Of a stretch of 64,000 bases of DNA, positions 7,629 to 53,517 are shown in pieces (the stretch's first letter is position 1; every line of letters begins with the position of its first letter). The DNA is taken from positions 16,962 through 80,961 of the forward strand of contig JAZQNM010000037.1 in NCBI GenBank assembly GCA_045627305.1, in the 5' to 3' direction. The notes under the pieces are model-generated. The model searched no databases. It worked only from the letters and a program-made list of their open reading frames with translations, and was not told the DNA's origin. This DNA is from Lachnospiraceae bacterium (lineage in GTDB: Bacteria; Bacillota; Clostridia; Lachnospirales; Lachnospiraceae). A program made the position numbers and the translations under genes.

Positions 7629-7885
7629 GCTATGAAGAGGAATAGTATCGGATGGTCCGGTTTCAGAAAGCTGTCGGTTGATGCGAGACAGTCGAGGAGC
7701 ATTGGAGAACTCGCCTTGGAGCAGCGGCTTGAAGACCGTAAGGTTGTGTAGATGCCGCCGGAAGCCCGCCGTTATTTGGGAAGAGCATCGAATGATTTCT
7801 GTGCTTATTGAGTGCATGTTTATCATGAAGTAGAGTGGTACCACGTTAATAACGCCTCTATTCCTTAGGGAATAGAGGATTTTTG
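7629..7885 (+). promoter_or_regulatory. T-box riboswitch leader, predicted Leu (CUC) specifier
   Basis: Stem I spans 7629-7725. It has a K-turn base (GCUAUGAAGAGG / CCUUGGAGCAGC), AGUA (7644-7647) and GAGAA S-turn elements, CUC at 7710-7712 followed by purine G and a 4-bp lower helix, an AG bay CAGAAAG (7664-7670), and a distal loop (7671-7691). The T-box sequence AAGUAGAGUGGUACCACG is at 7828-7845. The terminator CCTCTATTCC-TTAG-GGAATAGAGG plus T-run is at 7855-7885, and its 5' strand overlaps the antiterminator 3' strand. Confidence 0.85.
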
Positions 7886-7901
7886 TATGATGGAGGATAA
7901 T

Positions 7902-10424
7902 ATGAAAATCAGTTTTTCCACACTGGGATGTCCCGATTATTCTTGGACCGATATTTATACCATGGCTAAAGACCTTGGTTATCATGGCATTGAGATTCGT
8001 GGACTTGGAGAGAAAATCAGTGCATATAAGGCTAAGCCTTTTGCGGATGAGAACATTGATGCGACAGCAGCCAAACTGCGTGAAATCGGTCTTGAGATTT
8101 CCTGCTTTTCATCCGGATGCCCTTTGAAGTATGCGGATCGTCTTGAACGTTCCATAGAAGAACTTACTGCCTATGCGAAATTGGCAAATAAGCTTGGAAC
8201 CTGTTATATTCGTATTCTTGCGGACGAGAATCCTAAGCCCGAGGGCGATGTTTCGGACGAACAGATTATTGCCGCATTAAAGAGACTTGAACCTGTTGCC
8301 GAAGAATACAATGTTACGATGTGCGTGGAAACAAACGGAGTATATTCCGATACCAAACGTTTGAGAAAGGTTTTGGATGCAGTTGGGAACCGTAAGATTG
8401 CTGCGCTTTGGGATATTCATCATCCTTATCGTAACTGTGGCGAAACTCCGGAAGAAACCGTTTCCAATCTCGGAGAATATATCAAATATGTTCATGTTAA
8501 GGATTCTCTTGTTAAGGATGGGATGGTTTCCTATCAGATGATGGGATATGGAGATATGCCGATTAAAGAGGCTTTTGCTGCTCTTGAGAGCATACATTAT
8601 ACCGGATATGTTTCTCTTGAGTGGGTAAAACGCTGGAGCCGTGAACTTGCGGATGCATGGGTAGTATTCCCGCAGTTTGCCAATTATATGGCTCCTTATA
8701 AGACAAAGCATAAGAATCCGTTGCAAACTGACCAGAGAGGAACGGGAAATTACATCTGGCCGAAGAATCATTTGATTCCTTATACATTCCCGGATATTTT
8801 GGACCGTATCTGCGAGGTATTTCCGACACAGTATGCTTTCCGTTATACCGAACTGGATTATACAAGAACCTATCCGGAATTTCGTGATGATGTCGACAAT
8901 TTTGCACGTGCGCTGATTGCACTTGGCGTGAATAAGGGTGACCATGTGGCAATCTGGGCTACCAATATTCCCGCGTGGTATATTACCTTCTGGGCTACGA
9001 CGAAGATTGGTGCCGTTTTAGTTACGGTTAATACTGCGTATAAGATTCATGAGATTGAGTATCTGCTCCGTCAGTCCGATACCCATACGCTCGTTATGAT
9101 TGACCAGTATAAGGACAGCAATTATGTGGAGATTATGAAAGAAATCTGTCCGGAACTGGAAACCTGTGAGCCCGGTAAATTGAATGCACAGCGTCTTCCT
9201 TTCTTAAAGAATATCATAAATGTTGAAAGCAAACAGAATGGATGTTTTACATGGGATGAGGCTATTGAACTCGGGACTTCCGTTCCTGTAACTGAAGTTG
9301 AGAACCGTCGTAAGCTTGTTGATAAGGATGATGTATGCAATATGCAGTATACCTCCGGAACCACAGGTTTTCCGAAGGGTGTTATGCTCACACATTACAA
9401 TGTAGTCAATAACGGAAAGGCAATCGGAGACTGTATGGACCTTTCAACCGCAGATCGTATGATGATTCAGGTTCCGATGTTCCATTGTTTTGGTATGGTA
9501 CTTGCGATGACCGCTTCCATGACGCATGGTGTTACGATGAGCCCAATTCCTGCATTTTCCCCGAGAAAAGGCTTGAAGTGCATCAATCAGGAGAAGATTA
9601 CATGTTTCCATGGTGTTCCGACTATGTTTATCGCAATGCTGGGACACGAGGATTTCGATAAGACAGATTTCTCCCATATGCGTACCGGTATTATGGCGGG
9701 AAGTCCTTGCCCGATAAAGGCTATGCAGGATGTTATTGAGAAAATGCATATGCCGGAGATTTGTATTACATATGGTCAGACTGAGGCTTCACCTGCAACT
9801 ACAATGAGTAAGACAACCGATTCCATCGAAACACGTGTCAATACGGTTGGTGGTCCCATTTACGGTGTGGATTGTAAGATTGTCGATCCTGAGACAGGAG
9901 CTGATCTTCCGGACAATGTAGATGGTGAATTTGTTGCACGTGGCTACAATATTATGAAGGGCTATTATAAGATGCCTGAGGCTACTGCTGCAGCAATTGA
10001 CGAGAAGGGGTGGCTGCATACCGGAGATTTGGCACGCAGACTTCCGGACGGTAATTTCAAGATTACAGGTCGAATCAAGGATATGATTATTCGCGGAGGC
10101 GAGAATATTTACCCTAAGGAAATAGAAGACTTCCTGTATTCCTATCCGAAGGTAAATGATGTACAGGTTATCGGTGTGCCGGATAAGGATTACGGCGAGG
10201 AGATAATGGCTTGCATCATATTGAAACAAGGCGAAGAGGCCACAGAGGATGAAATAAAGCAGTATGTACGTGATCACATGGCTAAGCATAAGGTGCCGAG
10301 ATATGTTGATTTTGTTGATTCATTCCCGATGAATGCTGCCGGAAAGATTCTGAAATACAAGATGCGTGAAGAGGCTGTGGAGCGTCATAGTCTTCAGCAG
10401 GCTAATAGGATTGAAACTGCCTGA
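7902..10424 (+). CDS. Fusion protein: xylose-isomerase-like TIM barrel (N) plus AMP-dependent acyl-CoA synthetase/ligase (C)
   Basis: Residues ~1-275 (MKISFSTLGCPDY..GYHGIEIRG..VHVKD..SLEW) look like a sugar-phosphate isomerase/epimerase TIM barrel. Residues ~330-840 carry AMP-binding motifs (YTSGTTGFPKGVMLTH, GYGQTE-like ITYGQTE, GWLHTGD, RIKDMIIRGGENIYP, GKILK). The ATG at 7902 follows GGAGGA. Confidence 0.85.
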   Translation: MKISFSTLGCPDYSWTDIYTMAKDLGYHGIEIRGLGEKISAYKAKPFADENIDATAAKLREIGLEISCFSSGCPLKYADRLERSIEELTAYAKLANKLGTCYIRILADENPKPEGDVSDEQIIAALKRLEPVAEEYNVTMCVETNGVYSDTKRLRKVLDAVGNRKIAALWDIHHPYRNCGETPEETVSNLGEYIKYVHVKDSLVKDGMVSYQMMGYGDMPIKEAFAALESIHYTGYVSLEWVKRWSRELADAWVVFPQFANYMAPYKTKHKNPLQTDQRGTGNYIWPKNHLIPYTFPDILDRICEVFPTQYAFRYTELDYTRTYPEFRDDVDNFARALIALGVNKGDHVAIWATNIPAWYITFWATTKIGAVLVTVNTAYKIHEIEYLLRQSDTHTLVMIDQYKDSNYVEIMKEICPELETCEPGKLNAQRLPFLKNIINVESKQNGCFTWDEAIELGTSVPVTEVENRRKLVDKDDVCNMQYTSGTTGFPKGVMLTHYNVVNNGKAIGDCMDLSTADRMMIQVPMFHCFGMVLAMTASMTHGVTMSPIPAFSPRKGLKCINQEKITCFHGVPTMFIAMLGHEDFDKTDFSHMRTGIMAGSPCPIKAMQDVIEKMHMPEICITYGQTEASPATTMSKTTDSIETRVNTVGGPIYGVDCKIVDPETGADLPDNVDGEFVARGYNIMKGYYKMPEATAAAIDEKGWLHTGDLARRLPDGNFKITGRIKDMIIRGGENIYPKEIEDFLYSYPKVNDVQVIGVPDKDYGEEIMACIILKQGEEATEDEIKQYVRDHMAKHKVPRYVDFVDSFPMNAAGKILKYKMREEAVERHSLQQANRIETA

Positions 10425-19142: not shown

Positions 19143-19368
19143 AAAGAAAATGATTCCTGGGGTGTGCGACAACTCCTGTATTTTTGAACCTACAACTTTT
19201 AAAAGGGATTCCTATATCGGTAAGTGGATGTCAGGCCTCCTTCGAGTGGAAGGCAGTAAGCTTACTTGCGGTCACCCACCTAGCTTGTGCTAGGAGTCAA
19301 GAAACAGGAAACGGCATTCTGGGAATTATGTGTGTATACCATACTTCGCAGTTTTGCGGAGTTTTTTT
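19143..19368 (+). ncRNA. Candidate structured small RNA (~225 nt, 6S-like rod architecture), identity unconfirmed
   Basis: It is bounded by the promoter above and the terminator CTTCGC-AGTTTT-GCGGAG plus T7 (19344-19368). The 5' arm 19153-19187 pairs with the 3' arm 19297-19326 (ATTCC/GGAAT, TCCTGT/ACAGGA, TTTTTGA/TCAAGAA). There is an internal bubble with the perfect hairpin CCTAGC-TTGT-GCTAGG (19279-19294) and an apical stem around 19218-19270. No ORF with an RBS is present. Confidence 0.5.
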
Positions 19369-19460
19369 GTATCATAAGAAAAGTAGTACATTTCCTATGA
19401 TATACAATGCTCTGCAAGGAAACACACGCCTGTGCAGAGGAATTTTATCGCAAACGATTG
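19369..19460 (+). repeat. Degenerate third copy of the three-hairpin intergenic element
   Basis: TTGTATCAT...CATTTCCTATGATA matches hairpin 1 of the 51.5-kb copy almost exactly. The core GCTCTGCAAGGAAACACAC resembles GCTCCGCTAAGGATGCACAC, and here it is closed by CTCTGCA/TGCAGAG. ATCG-CAAA-CGAT resembles hairpin 3. Confidence 0.4.
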
Positions 19461-19486
19461 TTCTATAACAGCAGTTGGAGGAGAGT

Positions 19487-22400
19487 ATGGCAGTCCATTT
19501 TATCATTGGAAGTGAAGGAAGCGGGAAGACGGAATATATGTACCGTGAGATGCTTTCACTTTGCGAAAAGAACAATGACCAATCAATCTATTATCTTGTT
19601 CCTGACCAGGCTACATTACAGGCCCAGAAGGAACTTGTTGCCATGCAGGAAAATGGCTGTGTTATGAACATTGATATTCTCAGTTTCAGTCGTCTTAAGT
19701 ATCGTCTCACAGAAGAACTCGGAGATTGCTTTCCGACTGTTCTTGATGATATCGGCAAGAGTATGATGCTTAAGAAAGTTCTTTTAGAACATGACAGTGA
19801 ACTGACTGTATATGGTTTAAAGCATAAAAAACAAGGCTTTGTCGATGAGATGAAATCCATGCTTTCCGAACTGCAGAGATATCTTGTGGATGCTGACCGT
19901 CTTAAGGATTTGAGTGCACAAAGTGACGACAATATTCTTTCCGGCAAGCTTGCGGATCTTTCTTTGATTCTTAAGGAGTTCAGAAAGCTTCTCGGAGATC
20001 GTTTCCTTACCGAAGAGGATGTTTATTCTGCAATGTGTGGTCCTGTGGAAAGGTCCCAAAAGCTGAAGAATTCTGCCATTTATCTGAATGGCTTTACCGG
20101 TTTTACTCCGTCTCAGTTTTTGCTGTTAAGAAGCTTAATGCGTGTAAGTGGGGATATCACATTTGCCTTAACTATGGATGCGGAGCAGTTCGGGAAGACC
20201 ATTCCTTCAACATCCATATTTCATATGACAGCGAAAACGATAGCGGGAATTCAAAAGATAGCAGACGAGGAAGGAATTCCTGTTGATAATGCAACCGTTC
20301 TGTTAAAGAATCCGGAAGAACCGGGGGCCCTTTCATTTTTAAAGAATAATCTGTTTCGCAGAAATGGTCGCATCTATCGTGAAAAATCTGATAATGTTGC
20401 CATTCGTTCCTTTGCAAACCGTTCCGAAGAGATTCGTGCGCTTATCGTGGAAATTGAACGGCTGATTCGTAAGGAGGGTTTAAGGTATCGTGAAATTGCG
20501 GTAATTTGCGGTGATGTTCCGGCATATTCGCAGGATATGATAGAAATGATGGAGGCGGCGGAAATACCTTTCTTTATAGACTATAAGACAGATGTAATGA
20601 ACAATCCGCTGATTGATTTCATTCGCAGTGCACTGCGGGTATTGGTAACGGATTTTCGAATGGACACAGTCACCCATTATACTAAGAATTGTCTTTCCGG
20701 ATATGATTATCTGACCGCCTGTCTTTTGGATAATTATATGCTTGCGAAAGGCGTTCGGGGTGCAGGAGCTTTTACTAAGGAGTTTCAATATCGTTACGAT
20801 ACCAGGCACGCTGACCCGCTTCCTAAGGTCAATGCGATTCGGGAACAGCTTGTTCAGGATTTGATGCCTCTGAAGGAAGCTTTTCATAATGCGGAAAATG
20901 TTTCGGAATATGTCCGTATCTTATATGATTTTGTTAAGAAACATAATTGCTATGGACAGTTGCAACTTCTTTCCGAACAGGTCGGAAAAGGAGAGCATCG
21001 TATTGCAGAAAGAAAGAGTGAAGAGTACCGCCGTATTTATGAAGTGGTAATGACTCTTTTCGATACTTTGAATGATTTGCTTGGACCGGTGGGACTGACG
21101 CTTTCTGAATTTGCCGAAGTATTGGATGCGGGTTTTCGGGAGTATCAGATGAGTATGATTCCATTGGGACAGGATTGTGTTCTTATTGGAGATGTAAAAC
21201 GTTCCCGCTTGAATGGGATTAAACATTTGTTCTTTCTTGGGGTAAATGACGGTGCGGTTCCTAGTAAGGGCAGTTCCTCGAAAATCCTTACCGACAAGGA
21301 AAGAGAACAGTTGAAAGAAGCTTCATTGGAACTTTCCGAGTTACCTAAAGACAGTGTTCCTACGGAGGAATTTTATCTTTATCTTGCATGCGCGAAACCG
21401 TCAGACGGACTTTCGATTTCTTATCGAAGAACGGACGGGAACGGTAAAGAAACTAAGCCTTCTTATATGGTTTATCGGATTTTGAATTTGCTTCCGGAAT
21501 TGAAGATTGGAAATGAATATACGGATGCATCCTTATTCAGTGAGATTGCATCCGATAAGGGGCGTAGAAGTGCTCTTAGGGCATTGCTTGGAGAAGGAGA
21601 TGTTACCGATTTCGCAAAAGAAATTCTAATGTGGTTTCAGTCCGAAGAAGGAAAAGAATATGTTCCATTTGCTTCGGAAGCAGTTGAAACAGCAAAAAAC
21701 TATCGGTTGATACCGACACAGATATCTCCCGATATTGTAAAAGCTCTTTATGGATATTGCCTAAAGGGTTCTGTTACTATGCTTGAGAACTATGCGGAAT
21801 GCGGTTTTAAAATGTTCCTCGGGAAAGGCCTGTCGTTAGAGGAAAGAGCAGAGTTTACGCCAAGCTTTTTGAAGATTGGAAATGCCATGCATGAAGCAAT
21901 CTGTGAGTACTCAAACGCTGTTATTGGCAGTGGAACGAGTTTTCATGAAATAGATTCGGAGCTGGCATTGGGACTTATGAATGCTGCAATCGATAAGGTT
22001 ATGACTAAAGATGAGTATGATGTATTCCGTTCCTCACGAAGAAATGGCTATATTGCCTATTGCCTGAAGAAGACTCTGTTACATTATACCGAGGTGGTTA
22101 AGGAACAGATTGATGGTGGAAATTTCGAACCTTCCGCCTTTGAAAGAGAGTTTCGATTTACCTCGGAGGATATGGAACTGAACGGAAAGATTGACCGTGT
22201 TGACACCTGTAATCATGATGGCAGAAATTATATAAAAATCGTTGATTATAAATCCTCGGATAAGGACATTGATTTCGGTAAGATTTTCCTTGGTATGCAG
22301 TTACAGCTTCCGGTATATATGGGGGAGATTATTCGTGAGAATGGCGATGCTACAGTGCCTGCTGCAATGTTTTATGCGCTGATTGGTAATCCTTATGTCG

Positions 22401-38240: not shown

Positions 38241-40645
38241 TTAAACTGGAATCCTTACATAAGTATTTTAATAAAGGCAAATCTAACGAAATCCATGTAA
38301 TCAATGATATTTCCTTTGATTTCCCAGAAAAGGGAATGGTTGCACTGTTCGGCCGCAGTGGTTGCGGAAAGACTACGCTTTTGAATGTTATCGGAGGGTT
38401 GGATAAGGTTCAGGGAGGTAGTATATTCATTGGCGGGCAGAAGATGAGTGCTTCAAAAGATGAACTCAGAAACAAATATATCGGTTATATTTTCCAGAAC
38501 TATTGTCTCAATATGACCGATTCCTGCTATGAAAATGTTGCGACAGCACTTAAACTTTGCGGAATGCGTGACAATGAAGAAATTCGTCCCAGAGTTATGA
38601 AGGCTCTGGAGATTGTTGGAATGCAGCAGTATGAAAAGCGTACACCCGATACGCTTTCTGGAGGACAACAGCAGAGAATTGCCATCGCACGTGCATTGGT
38701 GAAGAATGCACCCGTTATTCTTGCCGATGAGCCTACCGGCAATCTGGATGAGGCCAATACCGTTATGATTATGGATATCCTGAAGCAGATATCCAAGGAA
38801 CATCTTGTCATATTGGTTACACACGAAGAGAAGCTTGTAGATTATTATTGCGATTATGTGATTGAACTTTCCGATGGTAAGATTGTCGGAGTGAAAGAGA
38901 ATGAACAAACCGGTGGATATATTGCAAAGAATAAGAATGTAATCTATCTTGGTGAATATGAGAAGCAGGATACTAATAATGCAATGATTGATATGCAGTA
39001 TTACGGTGAGATGCCTGCGGAACCTGTTAAGGCTAGATTGATTAACCGTAATGGTGTACTGTATCTGAAGGTAGATTCCCCGAATGTGCATATACTCGAT
39101 GAAACGAGTGAAGTTCATCTTGAAGAAGGCAGTTTTGAAGAGAAACTGAAGGCTTCAGAGACTGTGAATGCAATTGATATGTCTGAGCTTACTTCTTTCG
39201 AAGGGAAGAATTACGGTAATCTTTATACTTTTAAGGATGGTATCAAATCCGGATTCCGTCTTACTTCGGACCGCTTAAAGAAGAAGGGAGCAAAGCGACT
39301 TAAAAGAGTGCTTATTCTTTTAGGTCTGATTTCTGTATTTATGATAGCAAGTTCCGCAGTGGACTTGAAAAATTATATGGATGCAAAGAAAGAAGCGGCT
39401 TCGAATTTTGTTAAAGTTACTTCTGATTATGAGCTTGGTCAGTATACCATAAATGAGATTCAGAAACTGGTTGACGATTCGGAAAATTCCGGCATTCTTT
39501 CGGCTGTCTATATTAATGGTTATAGCGGGTCGGATTCGGATGTAAATGGAGCAAGTGTTGAGATTGATATGGGAACATTTGAAACATATCGTGCCACATC
39601 TATTTTTTCTTTCTCCAGCAATGAAGGGTATAACATCTTTCCGCTTCCGATGTCAGACCTTGGTTCTCTGAAGATCAAAGCAGGTAAGAAAACCGATAAC
39701 AAAACGGACATTCTGATTTCATCTAAACTTGCGGATGAAATTCTTGAGAATAAACCATTCCGTTTTATTAATGACTATGATGATTTAGTTGGCCTGACAT
39801 TTGCTTCGGATGAGTTGTTCTATGAGGAAAATGGAATACTATTCGACAGTGAACAGGATTTCTATGATTATGAGTATGAACATGATCTCAATTTTTATAG
39901 TATATATTTTAAGGAAGACGGTTCCGTTTATGTGTATCAGGGAAATCCGGTTTCTTTCCGTATAAGTGGAATTGTAAACAGTGACGAGAAGATTGCTTTT
40001 TTTGATGATTCCTGGTTCCTGCCGAAAGAGATTTCTGAAGAGAAACAAAAAGTATTAGATGATGCATCAGTAGAATACTATGGTAGTTTTGTCATTAATC
40101 CCGTAGAAGGAAGTAATATTACGGGATGCCTGATTCATTGTTCAGATGTGGAAAAGGCTAAAAAATCCCTGGAAAATATTGGTGGTATTACTTCCGTTCA
40201 TGATTCCAAAGAGCAATACAAACGTGACATGGAAAAGGCGAAAATATATATGACATCCAATATGATGACGCTTCTTGTATGGGTTGGTTTGATCTGCCTT
40301 TGCATGTTCTTTGTTATGCGTTCGGTATATATGGGGCGTGTGAAGGAAATAGGTATTGCACGTGCTATAGGTGTTTCCAAGAAGAATATTCTTAGACGGA
40401 CTTATGTGGAAACCGGTGTTATGGCAATGGTCAGTGTAATTATCGGATACATTCTTGCAACTGGTTTCATTCAGTATCTGCAGACATTTTCCTCTAAGAC
40501 AAGTAGTATATTCTTCTACCCGTGGTATTTAAAGATTGCAGTATTGATATTACTTTTGGTAATCAGTATTTTAAGCGGTTCCATTTCTGCATTTCTGATT
40601 CTTCGCAAGACTCCGGCACAGATTATGTCGAAATATGATATTTAG
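38237..40645 (+). CDS. Fused ABC ATPase / FtsX-type permease (MacB-like topology), paralog 2
   Basis: NBD ([25 protein letters not shown]), TM1, a ~300-aa extracytoplasmic domain, and 3 C-terminal TM helices. A 4-nt overlap with the upstream paralog implies translational coupling. Confidence 0.85.
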
Positions 40646-40653
40646 TTTAGAAT

Positions 40654-40683
40654 CCCTGATGTCTTAGACATCAGGGGTTTTTT
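40654..40683 (+). terminator. Intrinsic terminator after the ABC gene pair
   Basis: CCCTGATGTC-TTAG-GACATCAGGG followed by T6. Confidence 0.85.
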
Positions 40684-40815
40684 ATATAACCGGAAATGCA
40701 AAGCAATTTTCGGTTATATAGAAATGCTCCGCTAAGGATGCACACTCGCGCACAAGGTAGAAAGTTACTTCGTAACATGCGCTCGGCGCGAGCATATCGC
40801 AAGCGATATGTTTTG
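40683..40815 (+). repeat. Three-hairpin intergenic repeat element, copy 1
   Basis: Hairpin 1 is TATATAACCGGAAA...TTTTCGGTTATATA. The conserved core GCTCCGCTAAGGATGCACACTCGCG is at 40726-40750. A 29-nt insert contains GTTAC-TTC-GTAAC. GCTCGGCGCG is at 40781-40790. Hairpin 3 is CATATCG-CAAG-CGATATG (40793-40810). It shares this architecture with 51472-51574. Confidence 0.65.
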
Positions 40816-40865
40816 TCATAGAACAGGAAAGTGCTCTGCATTTGCAAACGATATGCTTTGCTCTA

Positions 40866-40894
40866 TTGACAAAAGTGTTGCAAAGCGCTATACT
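40866..40894 (+). promoter_or_regulatory. Sigma-A promoter of the nrtR-pncA-pncB operon
   Basis: TTGACA, 17-nt spacer, TATACT. Confidence 0.65.
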
Positions 40895-40901
40895 TTGATT
40901 A

Positions 40902-40918
40902 AGTAGTAATTTACTACT
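40902..40918 (+). promoter_or_regulatory. Candidate NrtR operator (17-bp palindrome)
   Basis: AGTAGTAA-T-TTACTACT, perfect 8-bp arms, located between the -10 box and the RBS of the NrtR-like gene. Confidence 0.5.
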
Positions 40919-40947
40919 ATGAATGACTCTAATATGGTGGGAGTAGA

Positions 40948-41772
40948 ATGAAAAGAGTATTAAATGACAAAGGAATCACTGAGGAAGAGTTTCTCGCTAC
41001 ATTTGACAAAAAAGAATACGATTGCCCGGCAGTTACTGTGGATGTATTGCTTCTTCGTATGAAAGAAGATCTTTCCTGTATGCAGACACTTTTGATTAAG
41101 CGTAAGGAACACCCGTTTTTAGATTACTGGTCGCTCCCCGGTGGGTTCCTTGATATGAAAGAATCTGCCTATGACAGTGCGTGCCGTGTGCTGAAAGAGA
41201 AGACCGGTATTGATGGAATTTATCTGGAACAGCTTTATACGATGAATCAGCCGGAGCGTGACCCGCGAATGCGTGTGATTGATGTTTCTTATATCGGGTT
41301 GATTCCTTATTCAGAACGTGCAAATGCTTCAGAGAATGCTTTGGATGATACCGCCTGGTTTGATATTTCATATACAAAGCGAGGGATAACGCTTTCCAAT
41401 ATAGAACATTCGGAGCGCATCAGCTATACTTTGGAGGAGAGAGTTTTCCCGAATGGTATTATTTCCGTAAAAAACTATGTGCCTAAGATTGCTTCGGAAT
41501 CGGCACTGGCATTTGACCATTCCGAAATCGTATTGGAGGGACTTTCCAAACTTAGGAATAAAGTGCTTCTTTCCGATACTGCATTTAATCTGGTACCTGC
41601 AGAATTCACGCTTCCTGATTTGCAGAAGGTATATGAGGTTATTCTTGGAATAGAGCTTTATAAGGCTAATTTCCGTGATAAAATGGCCAATAAAATAGTA
41701 TCAATGGAACGACGTGAGAAACCCATATCCGGTAATCGGATTGCAGGTGTATATAAATATAAAAAACATTAG
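40948..41772 (+). CDS. nrtR: NrtR-like Nudix-domain transcriptional regulator of NAD metabolism
   Basis: Nudix box GGFLDMKESAYDSACRVLKEKTGI plus a C-terminal winged-helix-like domain (AFDHSEIVLEGLSKLRNKV, FTLPDLQKVYEVILG). Located directly upstream of pncA and pncB. Confidence 0.7.
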   Translation: MKRVLNDKGITEEEFLATFDKKEYDCPAVTVDVLLLRMKEDLSCMQTLLIKRKEHPFLDYWSLPGGFLDMKESAYDSACRVLKEKTGIDGIYLEQLYTMNQPERDPRMRVIDVSYIGLIPYSERANASENALDDTAWFDISYTKRGITLSNIEHSERISYTLEERVFPNGIISVKNYVPKIASESALAFDHSEIVLEGLSKLRNKVLLSDTAFNLVPAEFTLPDLQKVYEVILGIELYKANFRDKMANKIVSMERREKPISGNRIAGVYKYKKH

Positions 41773-51445: not shown

Positions 51446-51472
51446 GCGGTTGATAATCAATCGCTCTTTTTT
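51446..51472 (+). terminator. Intrinsic terminator after the CYTH gene
   Basis: GCGGTTGA-TAA-TCAATCGC stem (one G:T pair) then TCTTTTTT. Confidence 0.6.
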
Positions 51473-51574
51473 GTATCATCGGAAATTGCGTCGCATTTCC
51501 TATGATACAAAAAACGCTCCGCTAAGGATGCACACTCACGAGCTCGGCGCGTAGAGTTTCACAAGCGAAACTCT
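51472..51574 (+). repeat. Three-hairpin intergenic repeat element, copy 2
   Basis: Hairpin 1 is TGTATCATCGGAAAT...ATTTCCTATGATACA. The core GCTCCGCTAAGGATGCACACTCACG is at 51516-51540. GCTCGGCGCG is at 51542-51551. Hairpin 3 is AGAGTTTC-ACAAGC-GAAACTCT (51553-51574). Confidence 0.65.
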
Positions 51575-51733
51575 TTATTCTTCGATATATTATTGCACGC
51601 TAAAATTTCTTGAATTATTTGTATTTTCGATTTTGTCAAGTACGAGTTTTTCACCCTATATGCAATTTTGACACTTGAACACACTTTATACATCCTTCTA
51701 TAATCGAATCACTATTTATTTATCGGAGGTACT

Positions 51734-52654: not shown

Positions 52655-53517
52655 AAGTCTTTGTTTCCAAAATAGAAGAGTGCAACTGTGCCGGGACCGG
52701 AATGGGATCCAATAGCGGGCCCGATAAAGTTGTATGTAATATCATTAATGCCGAATTTCTCGGTGATTAATCTGCCAATGTATTCAGCATCTTCTATACA
52801 ATCGCCATGTGATATGAATACTCGGTTATATGCAGAATCCATATTGGCTGTCATATTGTCAACTAAATCCAGCAAAGCCTTCTTACGTCCGCGTAGATTG
52901 TGCAAGGATACAAGATGACCTTCTCTGTCCATATGAAGAACGGGTTTAATATTCATCACATTACCCAAAAGTGCAGTTGTTTTGGAAATTCTTCCGCCAT
53001 TTCGCAGCGTTGCCAGATTATCCACGGTAAAATCAGCACATATTCTATAACGATATTCTTCCAATAAGCAGACCATTTCCTCATAGGAAAGTCCTTCTGA
53101 TTGCTTGGTAAGAGCAAAATCAACCAATAATCCCTGCCCCAAAGATGCAAGAAGGGAATCCACTACATGTATCTTTCGCTCCGGGTATTCCTCTGAAAGA
53201 ATTTTAGAGGCAAGTATCGCATTATTGCACGAACTGCTTAACGCACCGGAAAATGCTATATGGATTATGTCTTTACCATGATCTAACTGTGTACGAAAAA
53301 TGGTTAGAATGGTATCCAGATTACTGGCCATGGTTTTGGGAAAGTTTCCGTTTCGCATATTCGCATAGAACTCGCAAATAGGTAAATCTTGTTCCTCTCC
53401 ATAGATTTCCTTATCATCAAAGGAATAATAAAGAGGTACCTTGATGAGACTTTCATTTTTAAAATATTCTTCCGGCAGGTCGCAGGAAGCTTCGGTTGTA
53501 AATACATATTCGCTCAT
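52651..53517 (-). CDS. degV: DegV-family fatty-acid-binding protein
   Basis: 288 aa. Typical DegV N-terminus (FTTEASCDLPEEY), P.T.A.N, SG.LS.S, and the C-terminal GPAIGSHSGPG motif. Confidence 0.85.
   Translation of the reverse strand: MSEYVFTTEASCDLPEEYFKNESLIKVPLYYSFDDKEIYGEEQDLPICEFYANMRNGNFPKTMASNLDTILTIFRTQLDHGKDIIHIAFSGALSSSCNNAILASKILSEEYPERKIHVVDSLLASLGQGLLVDFALTKQSEGLSYEEMVCLLEEYRYRICADFTVDNLATLRNGGRISKTTALLGNVMNIKPVLHMDREGHLVSLHNLRGRKKALLDLVDNMTANMDSAYNRVFISHGDCIEDAEYIGRLITEKFGINDITYNFIGPAIGSHSGPGTVALFYFGNKDF

Follow-up and report, generated by a model that had tools for sequence, protein, structure and literature searches.

A gene-less, multi-hairpin repeat behind intrinsic terminators of Lachnospiraceae, probably a small non-autonomous mobile DNA element

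Between the terminator of an ABC-transporter gene and the promoter of nrtR, the genome of a rumen Lachnospiraceae bacterium carries an intergenic segment that folds into several hairpins and recurs nearby. Is this segment a mobile repeat, a structured RNA or a regulator of its neighbours? The analysis covered a stretch of 64,000 nucleotides (the window; contig JAZQNM010000037.1) and other genomes of the family. A first-pass annotation, made from the letters alone, had read the segment as REP/MITE-like or as belonging to a family of small structured RNAs. The mobile-repeat part of that description holds, given dispersed copies, insertion polymorphism with exact ends, identical copies elsewhere and a patchy distribution; the RNA part is weakened. 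The copy in front of nrtR (copy 1) probably belongs to a mobile DNA family of Lachnospiraceae and some sister families whose members are small, gene-free and non-autonomous.

Copies 1 and 2 in the window share an identical 22-nt core, GCTCCGCTAAGGATGCACACTC, at 40726-40747 and 51516-51537, both on the + strand, as the first-pass annotation had reported. With up to three mismatches allowed, this core has no match in 100 shuffles of the window, and 0 are expected by chance. Covariance model R1 matches the window at 40680-40818 (119 bits), 51469-51580 (104 bits) and 19365-19507 (33 bits, E 3e-7). In copy 1 as in copy 2, the start coincides with the T-run of a hairpin terminator, and the hairpins first described are present. 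Their parts, together with those of a neighbouring remnant and of copy 3, are as follows.

40654-40683, + strand: intrinsic terminator of the ABC-transporter gene, a CCCTGATGTC-TTA-GACATCAGGG hairpin with a six-T run; target site, outside the element
40684-40719, + strand: copy 1 hairpin H1, ATATAACCGGAAAT / loop GCAAAGCA / ATTTTCGGTTATAT (from sequence and model alignment)
40720-40725, + strand: copy 1 degenerate A-tract linker AGAAAT (family consensus AAAAAAC)
40726-40745, + strand: copy 1 conserved core, hairpin P0 (GCUCC-GCUAA-GGAUGC) and then ACAC
40746-40784, + strand: copy 1 P2 5' strand TCGCGCA, purine-rich joiner CAAGGTAGAAA, H2 and P2 3' strand TGCGCTC (from model alignment)
40764-40776, + strand: copy 1 hairpin H2, GTTAC-TTC-GTAAC
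40785-40790, + strand: copy 1 conserved GGCGCG, the P1 3' strand
40791-40818, + strand: copy 1 hairpin H3, AGCATATCG-CAAG-CGATATGTT, with T-rich tail TTTTGTCA, a terminator-shaped 3' end (from sequence and model alignment)
about 40818-40864, + strand: remnant of a tandem second copy, internally deleted, with the left half of H1 (CATAGAACAGGAAAGTGCTCTGCATTT) joined to the right half of H3 and the tail (GCAAACGATATGCTTTGCTCT)
51469-51580, + strand: copy 2, short subfamily without P2/H2 (R1, 104 bits; 6 bases replace 35 model positions)
51467-51472, 51473-51508, 51509-51515 and 51516-51537, + strand: T-tract, H1, A-tract and core of copy 2
about 51546-51551 and 51553-51574, + strand: GGCGCG and H3 of copy 2, the tail running to 51580
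about 19365-19456 (real extent), + strand: copy 3, degenerate and 3'-deleted (R1, 33 bits), in the order H1, core GCTCTGCAAGGAAACACAC, P2 5' strand, part of H2, TTGTTCT

The inner stem of H1 in copy 1, CCGGAAA/TTTTCGG, is a variant of the inner stem conserved across the family, ATAGGAAA/TTTCCTAT, and the GC...C bases of the core double as the 5' strand of P1. Judged from the filled and empty sites of a closely related pair, the transposed unit of copy 1 probably starts at about 40685-40686. Two earlier readings of this copy change. The supposed 29-nt insertion is the ancestral P2/H2 module, and it is copy 2 that comes from a deletion subfamily; an identical H2 is present in a long variant of about 250 nt. 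The direct repeats GCAAGCGATATG and GCAAACGATATG do not form a separate repeat, being the 3' end of the second, internally deleted copy. The 3' end of the remnant stops one base short of the nrtR -35 box. Copy 3 immediately follows the 6S RNA terminator (6S RNA at 19151-19329).

The element is about 103-135 nt long, with a long form of about 250 nt, and is modular. Behind the host terminator T-tract come H1, an A-tract, P0, the P1/P2 helices with H2, GGCGCG, and H3 with a TTTGTTC tail. The compensatory stem changes first seen between two copies are real and general: every helix but the P0 core shows two-sided changes, with 35 of 41 pairs changing on both sides among 93 copies from other genomes and 32 of 41 in an unbiased set (35 copies, about 27 genera). 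Paired cells make up 91-94%, against 71-72% in shuffles and 34-51% when the alignment is slid. H1 and H3 reach 97% and 98% of cells paired, P2 and H2 likewise show covariation, and P1 is supported by co-deletion of its strands. The outer pairs of P0 and the P1 helix both fit the data; the co-deletion support belongs to P1. H1 and H3 do not resemble each other, their loops are found in both 'flip' and 'flop' orientations, and the outer stem of H1 is hypervariable with its complementarity kept. In almost all copies the A-tract is complementary to the upstream flank, that is, to the target T-tract, and H1 is therefore extended. A short subfamily that lacks P2/H2 has multiplied in its own right, reaching a dozen copies or more. 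A strongly conserved core inside a scaffold of covarying helices would equally be expected of a functional RNA and, as such, counts against a mobile-DNA reading.

The hairpin P0 has the family form GCUCC-loop-GGANGC. Its stem covaries (for example CCUCC...GGAGG), and in the unbiased sample its loop takes the forms GCUAA, GCGA, GUAA, GCAG, GGG and GUGCA. A tentative link of AAGGAUG to the CsrA consensus fails because this string lies partly in a variable loop and partly in a stem: in the unbiased sample, CUAA belongs to the variable hairpin loop and GGA to the 3' strand of the P0 stem. RNAs bound by CsrA/RsmA, by contrast, display conserved A(N)GGA motifs in their hairpin loops.

Covariance-model searching of the source genome (G000; 2.3 Mb), which the first-pass annotation had proposed, finds many further copies and strong covariation. 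There are about 75 matches to the element and 52-56 to the core. The element is present in 72 of 150 sampled Lachnospiraceae genera and in some sister families, and within the genus of the source genome it occurs in about a quarter to a third. Its distribution across genomes is patchy; carriers are rumen and gut Lachnospiraceae, often with dozens of copies per genome. The element has multiplied recently and independently in separate genomes. Near-identical copies occupy unrelated loci: at three or more loci in the source genome they are 98.6-100% identical, and six copies in another genome (G268) are 98.8-100% identical. Butyrivibrio proteoclasticus P18, Eubacterium oxidoreducens DSM 3217 and Ohessyouella blattaphilus PAL227 are examples of cultivable carriers whose copies are nearly identical. 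Such copies break assemblies, and several contigs of the source genome end in the element. Tandem copies also occur, in which H3 and TTTGTTC(T) of one copy are followed directly by H1 of the next.

Rfam 15 has no match at gathering score at the element sites in the window, and E-value searches up to 10 with copy 1 and one long variant returned chance matches only, far below gathering scores. The core sequence was not found in the literature searched, and keyword text searches gave no description of the element. About half of the sampled genera of a major group of gut and rumen bacteria carry a repeat without an Rfam family. No autonomous, ORF-bearing version was found: the variant of about 250 nt has no ORF. 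Downstream of 5'-only copies the genes are unrelated, with ABC ATPases alone recurring, and no autonomous partner was found there; a loose regular expression built on the H1 palindrome lacked the specificity to point to one.

The insertion site is defined by an intrinsic terminator. A hairpin of -8 kcal/mol or stronger with a T-run lies directly upstream of 39 of 50 copies (13% for random 34-mers), and the upstream gene is co-oriented with the element in 44 of 51 cases. Same-genus relatives (G009, G001, G022) lack the element in front of nrtR: there the terminator and T-run are followed by about 22 nt and the nrtR -35 box. In a filled/empty pair of 97% identity, the empty site reads GGAGTCTTTTTA followed directly by TCAAGATG, and the filled site reads GGAGTTTTTTA, then the insert TATCATAGG...CTTTGTTC, then TCAAGATG. 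The insert, 134-135 nt, sits at the end of the terminator T-tract TTTTTA(T) with 0 target duplication and a 1-nt ambiguity; the exact junction comes from this one high-identity pair, whose T-tracts differ by one base. Five further sites are filled in G198 and empty in G199, two genomes with 39 and 6 copies, respectively. For the source genome itself, an exact NrtR protein look-up retrieved filled sites only, and three other exact-protein look-ups and a metagenome pattern scan found no empty sites at strain level.

The element integrates in a single orientation at the 3' edge of an intrinsic-terminator T-tract, without target-site duplication. Usable terminators are those of the host or the element's own terminator-shaped 3' end; tandem copies therefore result when a copy inserts behind another. 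Across three closed genomes, 51 of 55 copies point with the replication fork, a bias that is partly confounded with gene orientation and, at 93%, modestly above the level expected from gene co-orientation. A target rule of 'any hairpin plus T-tract' amounts to a safe-harbour strategy and could serve genetic tools in hard-to-engineer bacteria. Copy 1 inserted behind the terminator of the ABC-transporter gene and in front of the promoter of nrtR, and it is now drifting; there is no sign that it regulates either gene.

We propose that the moving form of the element is a single, folded DNA strand and that the move takes place at the replication fork, in a manner resembling the IS200/IS605 'peel and paste' process. 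The hairpins H1, P0, P1/P2 and H3 would serve as recognition structures. The A-tract beside H1 may pair with the target T-tract, so that the outer stem of H1 would form between target and element. Neither the Y1 (IS200/RAYT) transposases nor the reverse transcriptases encoded in a genome can consistently account for movement there. It is conceivable, though we hold the idea only tentatively, that the element represents a distinct class, one that homes to intrinsic terminators, completes its left hairpin by pairing of A-tract and T-tract, and moves as folded single-stranded DNA with the help of an enzyme from outside both the Y1 HUH transposases and the reverse transcriptases. The enzyme of such a class could be a host or phage factor that recognises the ATAGGAAA/TTTCCTAT palindrome and the GCUCC...GGAGC core. 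If so, the variable yet complementary outer stem of H1 and the loop flips might be footprints of hairpin-templated synthesis at each insertion. Homing that proceeds without a recognisable enzyme gene turns the mechanism into a testable question.

Among other explanations, the one that survives best is still unlikely: the element could be a non-autonomous IS200/IS605 derivative (PATE) or REP-like sequence moved in trans by Y1 HUH transposases, namely a RAYT-like Y1+HTH pair in the source genome and IS200 TnpA elsewhere. IS200/IS605 elements and PATEs ('peel and paste', as in IS608 and ISDra2) likewise make no target duplication and insert, always the same way round, on the 3' side of a short specific target, here a T-rich one. 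They and the element share subterminal hairpins at each end and a target complementary to a short segment at the foot of the left hairpin. Orientation with the replication fork is described for IS200/IS605 (PMC5027513); the lagging-strand template likewise holds the top strand of the element, a result in part confounded with the orientation of genes. The autonomous IS200 of two genomes of the same order (G238, G282) uses a like target, directly behind a terminator hairpin and T-tract; its right end is a subterminal hairpin with a T-rich tail, and it abuts an element copy in L360. The only Y1 genes of the source genome code for two RAYT-like proteins, which score 76 and 72 bits with NF047646 (cut-off 80).

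The distribution of the enzymes speaks against this explanation. Any Y1_Tnp gene occurs in 47 of 72 element-bearing and 44 of 78 element-free genomes, and RAYT-like genes in 33 of 150, only 19 of which carry the element. There is no Y1_Tnp (PF01797) match in G268, which is 100% complete and holds the copies of 98.8-100% identity, nor in G307 (copies about 94% identical) or the closed genome G194; all three genomes are complete or nearly so and hold many copies. RAYT-like Y1+HTH genes, which do not co-occur with the element across the 150 genomes, were therefore rejected as mobiliser, as was any Y1 transposase, given the lack of association and the element-bearing genomes without Y1. No IS110-type transposase was found in the source genome. 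The earlier remark that no transposase is associated agrees with this picture: RAYT-like genes, Y1 transposases and reverse transcriptase do not track the element. The structures differ too. The left and right hairpins of the element are unlike each other, whereas the two ends of IS200/IS605 elements are alike, and they are also unlike the hairpins of the G238 IS200. No autonomous IS that matches the element was found, the segment that pairs is on the 3' side of the hairpin and not the 5' side, and the element has a conserved internal multi-helix core and young copies in a genome without Y1.

REP and REPIN sequences are mobilised, where the enzyme is known, by a single-copy Y1 enzyme. Like REP/BIME and REPIN-RAYT systems, the element is an abundant, extragenic, palindromic repeat placed after genes, modular or tandem, in a genome with two RAYT-like proteins. 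Unlike them, it is much longer and multi-hairpin and lacks a GT[AG]G head; the RAYT-like genes sit among housekeeping genes without flanking element copies and occur across genomes independently of the element. With unflanked RAYT-like genes and the element in 19 of the 33 genomes that have them, it does not belong to the REP/REPIN-RAYT systems. Nor is it a classical MITE, a type derived from DDE transposons: its two ends, (T)ATCATAGG... and ...CTTTGTTC, do not form inverted repeats, and insertion makes no duplication.

A reading as RNA is improbable. The element would then be a multicopy structured RNA (an sRNA or 3'-UTR element), read through from the upstream gene and perhaps cut at the long H1 duplex, with P0, P1, P2 and H2 as the functional fold, H3 as its own terminator and spread as a secondary matter. 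The conserved internal core, the covarying flanking helices, the terminator-shaped 3' end, the GNRA-like form of some P0 loops (GCGA, GUAA) and the fixed strand relative to the upstream gene all fit such an RNA. Next to nrtR, the 6S RNA gene or similar neighbours, the element could indeed be mistaken for a regulatory RNA. H3 with its tail has a terminator shape in most copies, and a simple consensus scan flagged no terminator in 40550-40960. The RNA reading is weakened because G-U pairs are rare, the subfamily without P2/H2 multiplied and copy 1 is drifting. Among helix cells, one count gives 61 G-U against 54 A-C, and another 14 G-U against 26 A-C of 1487 cells; at 0.9%, G-U pairs do not exceed A-C mismatches in frequency, nearly all pairing is Watson-Crick, and the helix statistics are DNA-like. 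Within the species, 5 SNPs fall in the roughly 190 nt of copy 1, one of them breaking H3, and 1 falls in the flanks. No convincing internal promoter consensus was found in the element, and the absence of an Rfam match and the 75 copies per genome also count against an RNA.

Homing of a retroelement type is still less probable: here the A-tract of an RNA copy would pair with the terminator T-tract (EBS-IBS pairing in group IIC introns is comparable), and copying by a reverse transcriptase would complete the insertion. Group IIC introns home just past the stem-loop of an intrinsic terminator, in the terminator's orientation, with short base-pairing to a T-rich flank and no duplication (PMC7923331). 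The element shares this target logic and orientation and ends exactly at a terminator-like 3' end, and the source genome has one free-standing group-II-like reverse transcriptase. At 100-135 nt, however, it has no six-domain ribozyme (no domain V), no intron-encoded protein and no Rfam intron match, and its pairing statistics are DNA-like. This reverse transcriptase occurs in 20 of 150 genomes, only 8 of which carry the element; the free-standing group-II-like (Drt3a-like) enzyme was rejected as mobiliser for want of association. Precise, duplication-free and oriented homing to terminator T-tracts has so far been known mainly from group IIC introns, to which the IS200 seen here can be added.

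Hardly credible is a cassette that benefits its host as a two-way terminator or insulator, is maintained by selection and spreads only occasionally by recombination (H3 with its U-tract acting on the top strand, the complement of P0 with UUUUUU on the bottom): a hairpin followed by a T-run on both strands and a constant intergenic position would suit it, but a strong terminator already lies directly upstream at the sites, relatives have the orthologous sites without the element, identical copies come in bursts, and H3 of copy 1 is passed over by the simple terminator scan.

As a mobile DNA element, the repeat resembles other gene-less families in its general plan. Pneumococcal BOX and SPRITE, Bacillus cereus bcr1 and Neisseria Correia elements are modular intergenic repeats of about 100-200 nt from Firmicutes and other bacteria. 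Their folds are conserved and show compensatory changes, a terminator-like form and transcription are seen in some, and the enzyme that mobilises them is at most inferred. BOX, bcr1 and Correia elements have inverted terminal repeats and/or target duplications; others lack a defined target. The Lachnospiraceae element has no sequence relationship to any of these four families and differs from them in having neither inverted terminal repeats nor target duplication and in its precise target, the terminator T-tract.

The gene-less hairpin repeat between the ABC-transporter terminator and nrtR is real: a small, widespread mobile element whose target is unusual and well defined. It is apparently uncatalogued; an Rfam search returned no family that matches it, and its core sequence was not found in the literature searched. 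Two copies in the window share the 22-mer GCTCCGCTAAGGATGCACACTC (40726–40747 and 51516–51537, both + strand), which had no match in 100 shuffles with up to three mismatches allowed. Scores below are from R1, the covariance model of the element.

Copies of the element in the window
40680–40818, + strand: copy 1 (119 bits)
51469–51580, + strand: copy 2, short form (104 bits)
19365 to about 19456, + strand: copy 3, eroded and 3'-deleted (33 bits), directly 3' of the 6S RNA gene terminator
40818–40864: tandem remnant of a further copy, with H1 left half fused to H3 right half plus the tail CTTTGCTCT

A strong hairpin terminator precedes each of copies 1 and 2, which start at its T-run. Copy 3 lies between the 6S RNA gene (Rfam match at 19151–19329), whose terminator directly precedes it, and the next ORF. 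The shared core, T-run start and hairpins described in the first-pass annotation were all seen again in the window sequence. Two of its details are revised. The "direct repeat" is the 3' end of the tandem remnant at 40818–40864, as the fusion of H1 left half to H3 right half explains, and the "29-nt insertion" in copy 1 is ancestral, since copy 1 derives from a long form by deletion.

The genome containing the window (G000; 2.32 Mb, 77 contigs, 44% G+C, 95.5% complete) has rumen Lachnospiraceae MAGs as its closest relatives. It holds 52 core matches with up to three mismatches and 56 with up to four; a reversed-pattern control gave none. The genome-wide covariance-model check proposed earlier was run and found many further copies, about 75 loci at E < 1e-7, or about 0.4% of the genome. 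Several contigs (C9, C26, C28, C64) start or end within a copy. The order is the same in every copy: terminator T-tract, H1, the A-tract AAAAAAC, core, GGCGCG, H3 and the tail CTTTGTTC. Three forms differ between core and GGCGCG: the commonest carries the P2/H2 module there, the short form nothing (a dozen or more copies, copy 2 among them), and the long form a longer structured insert (about 250 nt in total, seven copies, no ORF). The short form multiplied on its own, so P2/H2 is dispensable for the element's spread. The long-form insert, between core and H2, is strongly self-complementary (CTAAGGGGGGACCCGGTTTACCGGGGGGATTCCTTAG..., GCAGAGCC...GGCTCTGC; C2:56659, C13:130595, C38:158110, C38:177644, C62:2552, C75:61576 and C2:21809).

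Copies in G000 have a median identity of 89%, and five copy ends from at least three loci are 98.6–100% identical. In G268, a genome from another family of the order, six 163-nt copies are 98.8–100% identical. These are recent bursts, and the dominant subfamilies differ from genome to genome. The earlier REP/MITE-like reading is supported by the many dispersed copies, the exact-ended insertion and the bursts of near-identical copies. A classical MITE is ruled out, the element having neither terminal inverted repeats nor a target duplication.

The target is the 3' edge of a terminator T-tract. The 34 nt preceding the T-run were folded for 50 G000 copies, and 39 reach −8 kcal/mol or stronger (mean −13.5 vs −4.3 in random 34-mers, 13% of which reach −8). 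The gene 5' of the element is co-oriented with it in 44 of 51 cases, by crude longest-ORF gene calls. In tandem arrangements, H1 of one copy starts immediately after H3 and TTTGTTC(T) of the copy before it, which means that the element also uses its own terminator-shaped end as a target.

Joined flanks of Butyrivibrio copies, queried against sister genomes, yielded one filled/empty locus pair in two MAGs (97% identical, the only high-identity pair found). The empty site reads GGAGTCTTTTTA directly followed by TCAAGATG; the filled site reads GGAGTTTTTTA, then an insert of 134–135 nt from TATCATAGG to CATTCTTTGTTC, then TCAAGATG. Insertion was at the 3' edge of the terminator T-tract, with a junction ambiguous by one T, and this pair shows no target duplication. 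The T-tract of the filled allele is one C shorter, and the exact first base of the insert rests on parsimony. The two MAGs hold 39 and 6 copies, and five further sites (78–85% identity) are filled in the 39-copy genome and empty in the other. At the nrtR locus, relatives from the same genus (nucleotide identity about 75%) show the ABC terminator and T-run without the element, and the nrtR promoter (TTGACA-17-TATAGT) about 22 nt on. Copy 1 occupies the same site in two other assemblies of its species, where about 190 nt of element carry 5 SNPs, one of which breaks an H3 pair, against 1 in the flanks; copy 1 is therefore fixed and drifting. The element at this locus appears to be a passenger, with no sign that it regulates nrtR. 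The tandem remnant ends one base 5' of the nrtR −35 box (40866). Element DNA now lies upstream of this promoter, vs about 22 nt in relatives. Elsewhere in G000, solo H1 hairpins stand behind terminators with the rest of the element absent (C74:24000, C16:828, C62:1058); excision, abortive insertion or deletion could have left them.

Target and element are complementary. In almost every copy, the T-tract plus 0–2 further bases can pair with the A-tract just 3' of H1, and a deviation on one side is often matched on the other: GTATTTT with AAAATAC (locus L207), TTATTTATT with AATAAATAA (L070) and TTTC with GAAA (a copy in G307, another element-bearing genome). In G268, copies that are the same elsewhere have either G or A immediately outside TTTCATAGG, which marks the left boundary in that subfamily. 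IS608 recognises its target with a guide tetranucleotide located at the base of the left hairpin (PMC5027513), and group IIC introns recognise theirs through EBS–IBS pairing beside a terminator stem-loop (PMC7923331). The element would share this target-reading idea in a third geometry, with an A-tract that may select the target or be copied from it and a T-tract that may stem in part from the element.

The fold is conserved across genera. A first alignment comprised 93 copies retrieved by exact core, so core invariance in it is by construction. A second, unbiased set was therefore taken from model hits (35 copies, about 27 genera) and given a hand-drawn structure. There, 94% of helix cells are paired, a figure flattered by fitting the alignment to the model, vs 72% in shuffles (0 of 500 as high) and 36–50% in a slid-partner control. 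Pairing is 97% in H1 (13 bp), 90% in P1 plus P2 (12 bp), 88% in H2 (6 bp) and 98% in H3 (9 bp); P0 has 3–5 bp. Two-sided changes at 32 of 41 pairs bear out the compensatory stem changes first noticed between copies 1 and 2, and the covariation is obvious by eye despite the model-fitted alignment. P2 occurs as UCGCGCG/CGCGC, GCCUGUGC/GCACAGGC, UGCGGCG/CGCCGCA, UUCGGCG/CGCCGAA and GCUUUUGC/GCAAAAGC; support for P1 (GCGC/GCGC around P2) comes from nine sequences in which each strand has lost one matching base. Primary sequence is most conserved in the H1 inner stem (ATAGGAAA...TTTCCTAT), and the outer stem varies between copies with complementarity kept. P0 is (G/C)CUCC-loop-GGA(N)G(C/G) with 3–5 variable loop bases (variant CCUCC-GGG-GGAGG). 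The suggested CsrA link of the core falls away: its GGA is part of the P0 stem, the loop is variable, and the element is not a CsrA sponge.

The helices pair in a DNA-like way. Non-Watson–Crick cells number 61 G-U vs 54 A-C in the 93-copy alignment, and 14 vs 26 among the 1487 cells of the unbiased set. The latter G-U share, 0.9%, is far below that of functional RNA helices and typical of DNA palindromes. Loops occur in both orientations (TTGCGTTGCA vs TGCAACGCAA in H1, CAAG vs CTTG in H3) within elements whose other parts keep one direction. Flip-flop of this kind typically comes with DNA inverted repeats or with hairpin-primed synthesis, and the flip is a DNA-level event. Flipped loops lie at G000 C57:1453 and 1590, C55:71893 and C77:10278, and in H3 of G307 (L361 vs L362).

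Our best guess is that the element would move by single-strand DNA transposition at the replication fork. With fork direction set by locating dnaA in three closed genomes, 51 of 55 copies point with the fork (G238, 36/39; G194, 11/11; G164, 4/5), which places the top strand (T-tract, H1 through H3) on the lagging-strand template. The same strand placement has been reported for IS608 and ISDra2, among other IS200/IS605 members (PMC5027513). The bias is supportive rather than decisive for IS200/IS605-like transposition, since most of the genes that the copies follow run with the fork themselves. G238 also carries a 706-bp IS200 in five identical copies directly behind terminator hairpins and T-tracts, without duplication and oriented with the fork. 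This makes terminator T-tracts a common landing site of single-strand transposons in the order. The right end of the IS200 has a subterminal hairpin and a ATATTTATT tail, and at locus L360 abuts H1 of an element copy; its hairpins (ACCTGC...GCAGGT) are unlike the element's. The IS200 sites are G238:C1:731670–732026 and four others, and G282 (L357–L360).

REP/RAYT and intron identities were both rejected. G000 encodes two Y1 proteins of RAYT-like type (259 and 272 aa; NF047646 scores 76 and 72 bits, cut-off 80), each ending in an HTH domain at the C-terminus, and no element copies flank either gene. They are single-copy paralogues (58% identical) wedged between housekeeping genes (C35:38234–39010, −, L155, beside Era-like GTPase and RecO-like genes; C48:8008–8781, +, L156). 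There is one free-standing group-II-like/Drt3a-like reverse transcriptase; an IS110-type gene was not found in G000. The reverse transcriptase (C72:13102–14325, −, L157, 408 aa) scores best against group II intron RT and Drt3a, with every score below its cut-off. It has no attached intron and may be a defence RT. Among the same 150 family genomes in which R1 was run, RAYT-like genes occur in 33 (19 with the element), the reverse transcriptase in 20 (8) and any Y1_Tnp in 91 (47); 25 element-bearing genomes lack Y1_Tnp. Gene absence from a MAG is weak evidence, and the key counter-examples are 97–100% complete or closed: Y1_Tnp had no match in G268 (100% complete, near-identical copies), G307 (99%, at least 21 copies) or closed G194. 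The genes downstream of 5'-only copies are unrelated. The first-pass remark that no transposase is associated therefore stands, with the RAYT-like genes unflanked and none of the three gene classes matching the element's distribution.

The exact 20-mer core occurs on more than 110 contigs among the matches listed, in genera including Butyrivibrio, Lachnobacterium, Mediterraneibacter, Schaedlerella, Lacrimispora, Coprococcus, Herbinix, Ohessyouella and Hominifimenecus, and in Eubacterium oxidoreducens. R1 detects the element in 72 of 150 family genera (one genome per genus; per-genome counts from 21 up are lower bounds). Each species or genus was sampled by a single genome, and genomes that are related do not count as independent. 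An order-wide sample places it in three or four families besides Lachnospiraceae, with at least 21 copies in each of three genomes of one outside genus; occurrence within its own genus is patchy. Copies also lie on 24 contigs from human faeces that are labelled "Bacteriophage sp." and carry no annotation (GenBank MT835472, MT837746 and 22 others; 74–83% identity to a Butyrivibrio copy), and on 8 IMG/VR contigs. The element is not a phage feature; phages could carry it. A further copy lies at 52721–52840 of a 225-kb plasmid record from goat faeces, NZ_CP119189, whose Clostridium perfringens label is odd for a Lachnospiraceae element. Butyrivibrio MAG G197 has a second repeat family of about 150 bp, unrelated in sequence, with scattered copies 80–95% identical (L127, about 7824–8000, and about 35 other places).
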